Assembly: GCA_021162425.1 (NCBI GenBank)
Contig: JAGGYQ010000022.1
Span: 1-60,646 of the forward strand
DNA length: 60,646 nt
Direction of reading: 5' to 3'
From: Candidatus Aenigmatarchaeota archaeon
GTDB lineage: Archaea > Aenigmatarchaeota > Aenigmatarchaeia > QMZP01 > QMZT01
Every line of letters starts with the position of its first letter. The stretch's first letter is position 1. Under the pieces are notes generated by a model that searched no databases, was not told where the DNA came from, and saw only the letters and a list, made by a program, of their open reading frames with translations. The translations under genes and the position numbers were made by a program. Positions 9,003 to 44,862 of this stretch are shown here, piece after piece.

Positions 9003-9075
9003 GGGCCGGTAGTCTAGTGGTTATGACGCTGCCCTTACGAGGCAGAGGTCCCCGGTTCAAACCCGGGCCGGCCCA
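9003..9075 (+). tRNA. tRNA-Val (anticodon TAC)
   Basis: Cloverleaf folded by hand: acceptor GGGCCGG/CCGGCCC plus A73, anticodon arm CTGCC-CTTACGA-GGCAG, T arm CCCGG-TTCAAAC-CCGGG. No intron and no encoded CCA. Confidence 0.95.
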
Positions 9076-9531: not shown

Positions 9532-10350
9532 ATGAATAAGCCAAATCATCCTTTCATTTCGATAAGTTCTGACTTGGGCGTCGAGTCAGAAGAGGTCGCC
9601 ATAATGAAGGCTGTTGCCTTGCAAATAAATCCAGATGCCATCATCCTTGATCTTCGCCACAGCATACCGGGATTTAACATAGTGGAAGGAGCATGGACAA
9701 TGGAGGCAGTTCATCTACTGCCTGTTGGATACCATGTATGTGTTGTCGACCCGGGTGTCGGAACCGAAAGAAGAGGTGTGATAATCAAAACCAAGAGAGG
9801 TGATTATCTCTTGGGACCAGATAACGGTGTTCTTATACCCGCGGCTGAGCGATTCCTTGGCGGCATAGAAAAAGTCGTGGAAATTAAGAACGAAAAATAT
9901 ATGAGGAAACCTGTTTCCCCTGTTTTTCATGGAAGGGATGTCTTTACACCGGCAGCCGCATGGTTGAGCAGAGGCACCCCTATTGAGGAATTCGGTCCTG
10001 AAATTGACCATAAAAAACTTGTAGGTGCTCCTTACACAGAGGGCGACGTGATGAATAAAAGAGTGAAAGCTCAGGTTATTCACATAAACAGGTTTGGAAC
10101 AATATTCATAAATATAAAGTATGACAATTTTGTGAAATCAGGCATAAAATACGGAGACAGGATAACGGTAGAGGTCAACAAAAGAAAGATAAAAACAAAA
10201 TTCTTGAAGACATTCGGCGAAGTTCCCATAGGCGAACCGCTTGTCATACCCGATGACTTCGGACGAATAGAAATAGCGATGAACCAGGATAATTTCTCGG
10301 AAAAATACAAAGTAAAACTCCTCGATACCGTGAAAATAAAAAAGATGTGA
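9532..10350 (+). CDS. SAM hydroxide adenosyltransferase-like protein (DUF62 family)
   Basis: 'VVDPGVGTERR' and 'GPDNGVL' motifs. The ATG at 9532 (MNKPNHPF) avoids overlap with the Nudix gene. Confidence 0.8.
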   Translation: MNKPNHPFISISSDLGVESEEVAIMKAVALQINPDAIILDLRHSIPGFNIVEGAWTMEAVHLLPVGYHVCVVDPGVGTERRGVIIKTKRGDYLLGPDNGVLIPAAERFLGGIEKVVEIKNEKYMRKPVSPVFHGRDVFTPAAAWLSRGTPIEEFGPEIDHKKLVGAPYTEGDVMNKRVKAQVIHINRFGTIFINIKYDNFVKSGIKYGDRITVEVNKRKIKTKFLKTFGEVPIGEPLVIPDDFGRIEIAMNQDNFSEKYKVKLLDTVKIKKM

Positions 10351-43477: not shown

Positions 43478-43604
43478 CGCCCCGGTAGTCTAGTCCGGTC
43501 AAGGATACCGGCCTTTCGAGTGGGCTTCGCCCTGACTTGAAAGGTTCGATGGCGAGAGCCGATGAAGACAGCCGAAGACCCGGGTTCAAATCCCGGCCGG
43601 GGCA
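43478..43604 (+). tRNA. tRNA-Glu (anticodon TTC) with a 52-nt canonical (37/38) intron at 43518-43569
   Basis: Acceptor GCCCCGG/CCGGGGC plus A73. Anticodon loop CTTTCG|A. BHB central helix CUUU (43512-15) / GAAG (43564-67), with 3-nt bulges CGA and ACA. T arm CCGGG-TTCAAAT-CCCGG. Confidence 0.9.
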
Positions 43605-44476: not shown

Positions 44477-44662
44477 ATGTTATTCAAGAGGGATAATATG
44501 CCTGTATTCGAAAGATATTGCGACAAATGCGGAGAGCCAAGCAATAGGCTCAAGAACGTGAATGGGAAAATGCTCTGCCCCAAGTGCAGGGGATTGAAAA
44601 CAGAGGACGAGCAGAAGTTAAGAAGAAAAGAAAAGCTTCGCATGCTCTGGACCTTGAAATAA
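44477..44662 (+). CDS. small zinc-ribbon protein (61 aa), hypothetical
   Basis: 'CDKCG...CPKC' followed by a basic tail. The stop lies 1 nt before the tRNA-Leu gene. Confidence 0.4.
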   Translation: MLFKRDNMPVFERYCDKCGEPSNRLKNVNGKMLCPKCRGLKTEDEQKLRRKEKLRMLWTLK

Positions 44663-44663
44663 T

Positions 44664-44862
44664 GCGGGGGTTCCCAAGCGGTCAAAGGGGCTAGAATACC
44701 GAAAAGGTATGGCGAAGTTTAGGTATGGCCAAGTTCAGGTTGCCACTTGGTTGTTGAGAAGCCTAGTGGCTTAGTGCCTTCGTGGGTTCGAACACCGCCT
44801 ATCCTCCGCCCAGCAGATGGAGCTAACGCTTCCAGCGGTGAAGGAGAATCCCACCCCCCGCA
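44664..44862 (+). tRNA. tRNA-Leu (anticodon CAG) interrupted by three introns: 44695-44732 (position 30/31), 44740-44760 (37/38), about 44793-44848 (T-loop 59/60)
   Basis: Class II ends GCGGGGG...CCCCCGC plus A73. After removing 38, 21 and 56 nt, an 84-nt cloverleaf results with anticodon stem CUAGG/CCUAG, loop UUCAGGG, variable arm UGGCUUAGUGCCUUC and T arm GUGGG-UUCGAAU-CCCAC. BHB motifs were drawn by hand for introns 1 and 2. Confidence 0.8.

Follow-up and report, generated by a model that had tools for sequence, protein, structure and literature searches.

A tRNA-Leu gene with tandem UAG and CAG anticodon cassettes and two predicted splicing folds in a Candidatus Aenigmatarchaeota genome

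Organisation of the tRNA-Leu locus

We analysed an interrupted tRNA-Leu gene located at positions 44664-44862 of a 60,646-nt stretch of DNA, referred to here as the window (contig JAGGYQ010000022.1, assembly GCA_021162425.1), the layout of which suggests that two leucine isoacceptors may be encoded by one gene. Splice boundaries are numbered by their positions in the window, on the forward strand. The host is a metagenome-assembled genome of Candidatus Aenigmatarchaeota, a DPANN lineage; the assembly comprises 954 kb in 75 contigs, has 40% G+C and is rated 92.6% complete. An earlier note on this DNA described a multi-intron gene for tRNA-Leu(CAG) with introns at positions 30/31, 37/38 and 59/60 (T loop), and with an anticodon stem that is formed only after splicing. 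The sequence and the stem are as described there. The plain label of a tRNA-Leu(CAG) with three introns has to be revised: the 38-nt first intron is composite, and contains a conserved UAG cassette with a full set of splice signals of its own.

Exon 1 (44664..44694) contains tRNA positions 1-30, that is the acceptor 5' strand, the D arm and CUAG, the first 4 nt of the anticodon stem. Within it, GGCU (44689-92) is the central-helix 5' strand common to both bulge-helix-bulge (BHB) motifs of the first intron, named A1 and B1 below. The 5' splice site lies after 44694, directly behind GGGGCTAG, a context found in all 21 family genes and in other architectures. It is followed by intron 1a (44695..44716, 22 nt), which is excised in both predicted pathways, and whose 3' cut by BHB B1 would fall just before the UAG cassette; this intron consists of a hairpin, AUACC (44696-700)-GAAAA-GGUAU (44706-10), then GGCG (44711-14) and AA. 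The UAG cassette GUUUAGG (44717..44723) provides positions 31-37 with anticodon UAG and G37. It is located inside the former first intron, 9 nt upstream of the CAG cassette GUUCAGG (44733..44739), which provides the same positions 31-37 with anticodon CAG and G37. The 9-nt spacer between them, UAUGGCCAA (44724..44732), has two mutually exclusive roles: in the CAG path it forms the inner and central 3' strands and the bulge AA of BHB A1, and in the UAG path 44725-33 is the inner-helix 5' strand of BHB B2.

The last intron of the anticodon region (44740..44760, 21 nt) includes 44745-54, which pairs with 44725-34 to form the 10-bp inner helix of B2, and UGAG (44755-58), the shared central-helix 3' strand and partner of either UUUA or UUCA. 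The common 3' splice site lies after 44760. Exon 3 (44761..44792) covers positions 38-59: G38, the CCUAG 3' strand of the anticodon stem, the 15-nt variable arm, the T stem 5' strand and UUCGAA of the T loop. The T-loop intron (44793..44848, 56 nt), at position 59/60, has a relaxed BHB; only some orthologs have such an intron, and the T-loop intron sequences are unrelated between genera. Exon 4 (44849..44862) contains U60, the T stem 3' strand CCCAC, the acceptor 3' strand CCCCCGC and the discriminator A73; CCA is not encoded. The cassette region is a tandem repeat (44706-44723 and 44722-44739), of which the first copy bears the UAG anticodon loop; with the cut marked by a slash, it reads GGUAUGGCSAA/GUUUAGG, then (GG)UAUGGCCAA/GUUCAGG. 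All pieces follow one another on the same strand in a span of 199 nt, and do not form separate genes as in split or tri-split tRNAs.

Spliced products and splice signals

Removal of 44695-44732, 44740-44760 and 44793-44848 joins exons 44664-94, 44733-39, 44761-92 and 44849-62 into the 84-nt class II tRNA-Leu(CAG) proposed earlier, and ARAGORN calls the joined exons as tRNA-Leu(cag). This product contains the acceptor stem GCGGGGG/CCCCCGC, A73, the anticodon arm CUAGG-UUCAGGG-CCUAG and the T arm GUGGG-UUCGAAU-CCCAC. If 44695-44716 and 44724-44760 are removed instead, the result is again 84 nt long and is called tRNA-Leu(tag). Calls of tag and cag were obtained in 14/14 constructs, which were made from the window gene, four relatives and two type-II genes. 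Both products have the features of a class II tRNA-Leu, namely a 15-nt variable arm, A73, anticodon UAG or CAG, and G37. In the unspliced locus ARAGORN calls no tRNA, and Rfam finds none even at E<=10.

BHBs were scored for a 4-bp central helix, two 3-nt bulges cut after their second base, and inner and outer helices. A BHB or its relaxed form is present at every intron boundary. BHB A1 (44695-44732) is the textbook motif reported before, with central helix GGCU/GGCC (4/4), a 5-bp inner helix AUACC/GGUAU and bulges AGA and AAG. Concerning A2 (44740-44760), the central helix UUCA/UGAG (4/4) and the bulges GGU and AAG were found as the earlier note had drawn them, but there is no in-register inner helix (0 bp, hBH-like); its outer helix has 6 bp after removal of the first intron. 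B1 (44695-44716) has a 5-bp inner helix and a central helix of 3/4 with one G.G mismatch, which is 4/4 in 20/21 relatives. B2 (44724-44760) is the best BHB of the locus: central helix UUUA/UGAG (4/4), bulges GGU and AAG, and the 10-bp inner helix 44725-34/44745-54, compared with none for the 37/38 BHB drawn in the earlier note. The T-loop BHB (44793-44848) is relaxed, as had been proposed, with a central helix of 3/4 and the T stem as a 5-bp outer helix; the helix CACCGC/GCGGUG is present but out of the canonical register, and, GAA being repeated, the cuts could fall in any of four equivalent registers, which makes the boundaries ambiguous. By chance, a strict BHB is expected at a pre-specified position pair with a probability of ~2e-4 (0.04 hits per nt in shuffles).

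The two folds in which these motifs are presented (fold A with A1 and A2, fold B with B1 and B2) are mutually exclusive, because the inner helix of B2 uses the spacer GGCC (44727-30) that A1 needs. Under constraint they are near-isoenergetic across genes (ΔΔG -6.3 to +3.8 kcal/mol), and in the window gene fold B, the UAG fold, is favoured by 5.5 kcal/mol. In these models thermodynamics alone decides nothing between the folds.

Conservation across relatives

Orthologs were found by BLAST in the genomes of the family, a search that was blind to the cassettes; the first two insertions are kept at 70-79% identity. The pattern GTTTAGG-N9-GTTCAGG is exact in 21/23 family genomes and in 0/68 genomes of other families in the order. 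G003 is the 22nd family genome with UAG and CAG, in a different duplicated layout. The pattern also occurs in Thermocladium modestius, Natrinema and many bacteria, but outside any tRNA context, and these occurrences were set aside as chance matches. The 21 distinct family genes diverge widely and their flanking intron sequence is mostly unrelated between genera, while all mature-tRNA positions are conserved. The number of intervening sequences per gene ranges from 2 to at least 6 in this set. The orthologs with 5 to at least 6 are L016 (genome G004, 442 nt), L014 (G008, 351 nt), L018 (325 nt) and L008/L012 (291 nt), and their intervening sequences are located in the D loop (sometimes nested), at 30/31 and 37/38, in the variable arm and in the T loop.

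As an attempt at falsification, metagenome contigs were searched with any base allowed at position 34 of each cassette. The matches (24/24) have U in the first cassette and C in the second, and 18 of them are new variants. Across the 21 family genes and these 24 environmental sequences, 5/9 spacer columns vary while both cassettes are invariant; neither cassette accumulates changes as a decaying duplication or pseudo-exon would.

In-register pairing in the 21 genes amounts to 99.1% for A1, 97.9% for B1, 89.9% for B2 and 80.0% for A2, and drops to 15-67% if the partner strand is shifted by 1-3 nt. Every helix has both-sided (compensatory) changes, and one-sided changes are located on the intron strand and not in the cassettes. 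The inner helix of B2 is in the canonical register, with 4-10 bp, in 16/21 genes. The genes also differ in the base of the shared 3' strand that faces position 34: 16 genes have G there and 5 have A. U34 is paired with either base (21/21 genes), and C34 is mismatched in the five A-form genes. The A form is also seen in 10/24 environmental sequences.

Leucine tRNA inventory and decoding

Counts of Leu-type ends gave exactly four at the 5' side and four at the 3' side for this genome, all paired in cis. They belong to the genes for AAG (contig C44), UAA (C20) and CAA (C31) and to the gene studied here, which is the only source of the CAG anticodon in the genome; whether it was the sole copy had been posed as a check in the earlier note. 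The same four genes are present in 15 family genomes and the full set also in G055; dual-bearing genomes of other families have consistent partial Leu sets. Separate UAG and CAG genes were verified in the non-dual genomes G027, G033 and G032.

Hidden UAG or CAG arms were sought by a permissive genome scan (239 matches), which was replaced by the counts of Leu-type acceptor ends and by an order-wide search for stand-alone arms, independent of the 5' ends, that used the pattern CNNGGYTYAGRNCCNNG and kept matches only if their stem was fully paired. In the whole order, stand-alone arms were found in 0/33 dual-bearing and 27-36/58 non-dual genomes (Fisher 4e-7 to 2e-10). Without the window's family the counts are 0/11 and 27-36/57 (0.002 to 8e-5), and in family f5 only 0/8 and 12-21/39 (0.093 to 0.006), and these p-values give the greatest strength that the evidence can have. 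In the dual-bearing genomes there were six "arms" with full pairing, all of which lie inside long ORFs (open reading frames) and have no tRNA features, so they are not tRNAs; the same was concluded for a fifth Leu-type 5' end in G002 and for extra matches in G019 and G005.

Concerning codon use, the frequencies per 1000 are 24.1 for CUU, 16.4 for CUC, 5.4 for CUA and 13.8 for CUG; CUA accounts for 1092 codons in 461 long ORFs. No other tRNA in the genome reads CUA in the ordinary way. The sole ORF with a cytidine deaminase (CDA) fold scores 92 bits as ComEB/dCMP deaminase and 35 bits as TadA, and an A34-to-I34 route for CUA is not supported by this sequence comparison. With CAG as the only product CUA would be left without an ordinary decoder, because AAG replaces GAG and no TadA-like deaminase was found. 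From the conserved UAG cassette, the better BHB of the UAG path and this lack of another CUA decoder, we conclude that the gene most likely encodes tRNA-Leu(UAG) too, and possibly mainly this isoacceptor.

The fourth Leu gene (C44:2212-2482) has the anticodon loop CUAAGGA, that is tRNA-Leu(AAG) with A34. It is consistent in the window's family and in several other families (L142, L146, L147, L160, L223, L226, L230), and G032, G069 and G278 carry GAG in place of AAG. To our knowledge, A34 tRNAs are very rare in Archaea. An intron at 30/31 is also present in the Leu(CAA) and Leu(AAG) paralogs (C31:3437-3698; L142, L146, L215, L226, L230), therefore the intron site is shared across Leu paralogs; the 3' context GGCCAA/G is also present in some of them.

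Distribution and architectures in the phylum

A generalised pattern, UAG cassette then CAG cassette, is found in 39/371 genomes of the phylum, belonging to 25 genera and 6 families, and its reversed control gave 0 matches in the same 371 genomes. One further pair, in G028, was missed by the generalised pattern. The pairs fall into four architectures, with the 30/31 5' site and one 3' site common to all. In types II and IV the UAG loop and arm are contiguous with exon 1, and the loop pairs with a complement located downstream of it (CCUAAG in type IV), in a BHB that would swap in the CAG cassette.

In non-dual relatives the stand-alone UAG and CAG genes are often tandem neighbours, with anticodon arms 120 nt to 2.4 kb apart and mostly with UAG first (G047:C50, G063:C38, G060:C9, G035:C17, G044:C68, G087:C18 and others). 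One genus holds both G063, with separate genes, and G062/G064, with the dual gene. Since these neighbours stand in the same order as the cassettes of the dual gene, the comparison of sequences suggests that the latter may have arisen by fusion or deletion between neighbouring UAG and CAG genes.

Splicing machinery

The earlier note predicted a splicing endonuclease of broad specificity, and an ε2-type EndA was found (C72:19094-20293, 400 aa). It consists of one N-terminal domain and two adjacent catalytic-type domains (Pfam), that is the three units of the ε2 type. Its residues 3-400 align to 2-387 of PDB 4FZ2 (E 8e-104), the ε2-type three-unit enzyme of Ca. Micrarchaeum ARMAN-2 (PMC3488258). 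The motifs FRIYFPG, WIHSRH, VKKTF and GQYGVYK match Y236, H251, K282 and Y160/K161 of the ARMAN-2 enzyme, the first three being catalytic residues and the last pair belonging to the specificity loop (PMC12397907). The likeness to 4FZ2 thus includes the full-length alignment, the catalytic triad and the Tyr-Lys pair of the specificity loop. EndA of the ε2 type is present in 88/91 genomes of the Aenigmatarchaeota order, unlike the range reported in 2018, which comprised ARMAN-1/2 and Mancarchaeum only (PMC5829648). The window's family has ε2 EndA alone; many other families add a short (~185-240 aa) α-like paralog. RtcB is encoded at C25:11529-12797, so that both the endonuclease and the RNA ligase needed for splicing at non-canonical BHBs are present.

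Proposed mechanism and alternative explanations

We propose that this is one tRNA-Leu gene with a common body and two mutually exclusive 7-nt anticodon cassettes for positions 31-37. The primary transcript would adopt one of two exclusive folds, each of which would offer BHBs to the ε2 endonuclease. In fold B, the 5' site after 44694 would pair with the first repeat, GGUAU-GGCG, leading to excision of 44695-44716, and 44725-34 would pair with 44745-54, so that 44724-44760 is excised along with the CAG cassette to give tRNA-Leu(UAG). In fold A, the same 5' site would pair with the second repeat, GGUAU-GGCC, and 44695-44732 would be excised along with the UAG cassette; 44740-44760 would be removed next, to give tRNA-Leu(CAG). 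In either fold the T-loop intron (44793-44848) would also be taken out, and RtcB would ligate the exons. The ratio of UAG to CAG would be set by the competition between the folds. As far as can be judged from sequence, we find it somewhat probable that alternative BHB folding selects between the cassettes and that both isoacceptors come from the one gene; both pathways would then operate in the cell, and both tRNAs would be charged and put to use.

Several observations weigh against this proposal. In the window gene B1 has the G.G mismatch in its central helix (3/4) and A2 lacks an inner helix, and in type II the A1 BHB is partly automatic, because GGCU self-pairs through G.U. Both processing-competent folds lie 9-14 kcal/mol above the unconstrained minimum free energy, and the fold of the whole locus is not unusually stable (z = -1.4). 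The spliced UAG junction had 0 matches in 241 M metagenome records, which are contigs and are silent on the product either way. Concerning the inventories, the genomes compared are phylogenetically related and the Fisher p-values overstate their independence, and stand-alone genes with an interrupted anticodon arm would escape the order-wide pattern. Also, tRNA-Leu(UAG) could read CUG by wobble, so the CAG product is not strictly required.

In one alternative explanation only tRNA-Leu(UAG) is made, from a gene with introns at 30/31 (22 nt) and 37/38 (37 nt). The CAG cassette would be a conserved part of the second intron, for instance a relic of a neighbouring CAG gene that became fused or a structural element, and CUG would be read by U34 wobble, which would be workable for decoding. 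B2 ranks first among the canonical BHBs of the window gene and of most relatives, every sequence pairs U34 with the shared 3' strand but not every one pairs C34, the energy difference in the window gene favours fold B, and UAG is the isoacceptor that decoding requires; the contiguity of the UAG arm with exon 1 in architectures II and IV agrees with it too, and a fusion relic is plausible, UAG and CAG genes being tandem neighbours in non-dual relatives. We nevertheless think it unlikely. The CAG cassette, which in fold B is part of a hairpin loop and takes no part in pairing, is still invariant (21 + 24 sequences) while adjacent intron bases vary freely. A1 is the best conserved BHB (99.1% paired, inner helix 5-11 bp, compensatory changes), and cleavage there is to be expected of an enzyme with broad specificity, and would do harm if CAG were unwanted. 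Non-dual relatives, moreover, have kept a separate CAG gene, so the lineage maintains a CAG isoacceptor. The converse, that only tRNA-Leu(CAG) is made, is the reading of the earlier note and would treat the UAG-like copy as the product of a 16-nt tandem duplication and as the inner-helix 3' strand of a 38-nt intron, with CUA read, for example, by A34 or modified A34 of tRNA-Leu(AAG). It would account for the textbook A1, for the helix (AUACCUAAAC/GUUUAGGUAU) that the UAG cassette forms, in most relatives, with the intron's 5' part, for the valid spliced product and for the unusual tRNA-Leu(AAG) of the family. It would leave the 1092 CUA codons of the 461 long ORFs without an ordinary decoder, no TadA-like deaminase having been found. 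B1 and B2, both in register, would go unexplained, as would the 10-bp helix 44725-34/44745-54 and the change from G to A opposite position 34, which favours U34. The GUU of the cassette is unpaired in A1 in the window gene and in the g7 genus, yet invariant, changes in the A1 helix are confined to the partner strand, and in architectures II and IV no break separates the UAG loop from exon 1; we therefore hold the explanation to be improbable. A similarly low probability is given to the view that both cuts are processing noise and the cassette is kept by repeat homogenisation (slippage or conversion), or that the copy is non-functional or poorly expressed. The units do form a near-perfect 16-nt tandem repeat, and in L006 and L018 the same substitution is found in both copies (CCAG/CCAG). 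Homogenisation, however, would erase the single U/C difference, which is fixed in 45/45 type I sequences. Lack of function or mere noise is at odds with a gene that is the only one for these anticodons in a 92.6%-complete genome and 15 relatives, and whose mature-tRNA positions are all conserved beside divergent introns.

Other tRNA genes and neighbouring features

Over the whole genome, Rfam scores ~10 tRNAs at or above its cut-off, and ARAGORN reports 14, of which several have doubtful anticodons. Heavy tRNA interruption appears to be general in this genome because only ~10 tRNAs reach the cut-off, and most of its tRNA genes are probably hidden by non-canonical introns. Within the window, ARAGORN finds tRNA-Val(UAC) at 9003-9075; Rfam finds the same gene and an intron-bearing tRNA at 43479-43604. 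The latter is a tRNA-Glu(UUC) with loop CUUUCGA, a C27-A43 mismatch, one canonical intron and no second cassette, and is miscalled by ARAGORN as tRNA-Arg(tcg). A GC-island scan for tandem cassettes in other tRNAs of the genome found none, and is insensitive, having missed even the known Leu case.

A hairpin module of ~40 nt (GTTGATAAGGGCG...CGCCCTTAT) is found in tandem copies inside T-loop introns or beside several tRNA genes (C31:3559-3660, C37:248-320, C24:1-133 and 10156-10290, C28:20123-20459, C52:5473-5684), a distribution which suggests a mobile or spreading intron element. Upstream of the tRNA-Leu gene there is a 61-aa zinc-ribbon ORF (44477-44662), which stops 1 nt short of the tRNA 5' end. 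An identical ORF ending (...CPKCRG...) adjoins the orthologous tRNA in L003, L006 and L011, and in reverse orientation in L007, L009 and L010. The pair is syntenic, because the same ORF end abuts the orthologous tRNA in several genera, and judging by this layout the two genes are possibly co-transcribed.

Relation to known systems and significance

Multi-intron tRNA genes with non-canonical BHB introns are known from Thermoproteales, Korarchaeum and ARMAN-1/2 (Sugahara et al. 2008, reviewed in PMC4033280). The present gene resembles them in its introns at 30/31, 37/38 and in the T loop, which are of the protein-spliced kind, in its mixture of strict and relaxed BHBs, in the co-occurrence of a broad-specificity EndA, and in being invisible to standard tRNA finders. 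It differs from them in that one "intron" holds another anticodon micro-exon, which looks functional and has splice signals of its own, and in that one 5' half-BHB could choose between two 3' half-BHBs. The lineage, Aenigmatarchaeota, is also different, and its orthologs reach at least 6 intervening sequences, whereas a "maximum of three" introns was given for Thermoproteales tRNAs (2014 review, PMC4033280).

The tri-split tRNA-Gly of Caldivirga maquilingensis is encoded by separate genes whose products anneal in trans via leader sequences (Fujishima et al. 2009, summarised in PMC4033280). As there, a common body and alternative anticodon pieces would yield synonymous isoacceptors through BHB joints cut by EndA, and layout, conservation and inventories fit this comparison; here, unlike in that case, there is one 199-nt transcript and a proposed intramolecular choice of two folds, in cis. 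In Nanoarchaeum equitans, one 3' half of the split tRNA-Glu is common to two 5' halves and is trans-spliced (Randau et al. 2005, cited in PMC4033280). Isoacceptors that differ at position 34 (UUC/CUC there, UAG/CAG here) share single-copy sequence in both cases; the N. equitans tRNA has separately encoded halves, and neither a tandem cassette nor fold competition. No precedent for a tRNA with two cassettes in cis was found in the literature searched.

Mutually exclusive exons of eukaryotic pre-mRNA provide another parallel, in which a selector pairs with one of several tandem docking sites and one cassette is kept. Those are spliceosomal and belong to mRNA, unlike the present case of an archaeal tRNA endonuclease and ligase with 7-nt exons.

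For annotation, the consequence is that standard tools miss the gene and an intron-aware annotator would give one anticodon only, so that Aenigmatarchaeota genomes would seem to lack tRNA-Leu(UAG), tRNA-Leu(CAG) or both. The known range of the ε2 enzyme is extended from Micrarchaeota to the whole Aenigmatarchaeota order, and the 199-nt locus is a compact natural substrate on which the choice of an ε2 endonuclease between competing BHBs can be studied. If both products are made, this would be alternative splicing of a tRNA, with one gene giving two decoders by a protein-only archaeal machinery and competing RNA folds. A mode of encoding with mutually exclusive cassettes in cis would then join the intron-containing, split, tri-split and permuted tRNAs, and would be a new route to genome economy in the ultra-small DPANN genomes.

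A wider reading, speculative and in our view unlikely as a whole, is that cis alternative splicing operates in archaeal tRNA with the bistable pre-tRNA fold as a switch of the UAG/CAG ratio, perhaps responsive to temperature, Mg2+ or growth; that it arose repeatedly in Aenigmatarchaeota, probably by fusion of tandem genes; and that the same principle may act on other tRNAs. Were the switch to exist, it would give these tiny-genome archaea a tunable decoding capacity without extra genes.

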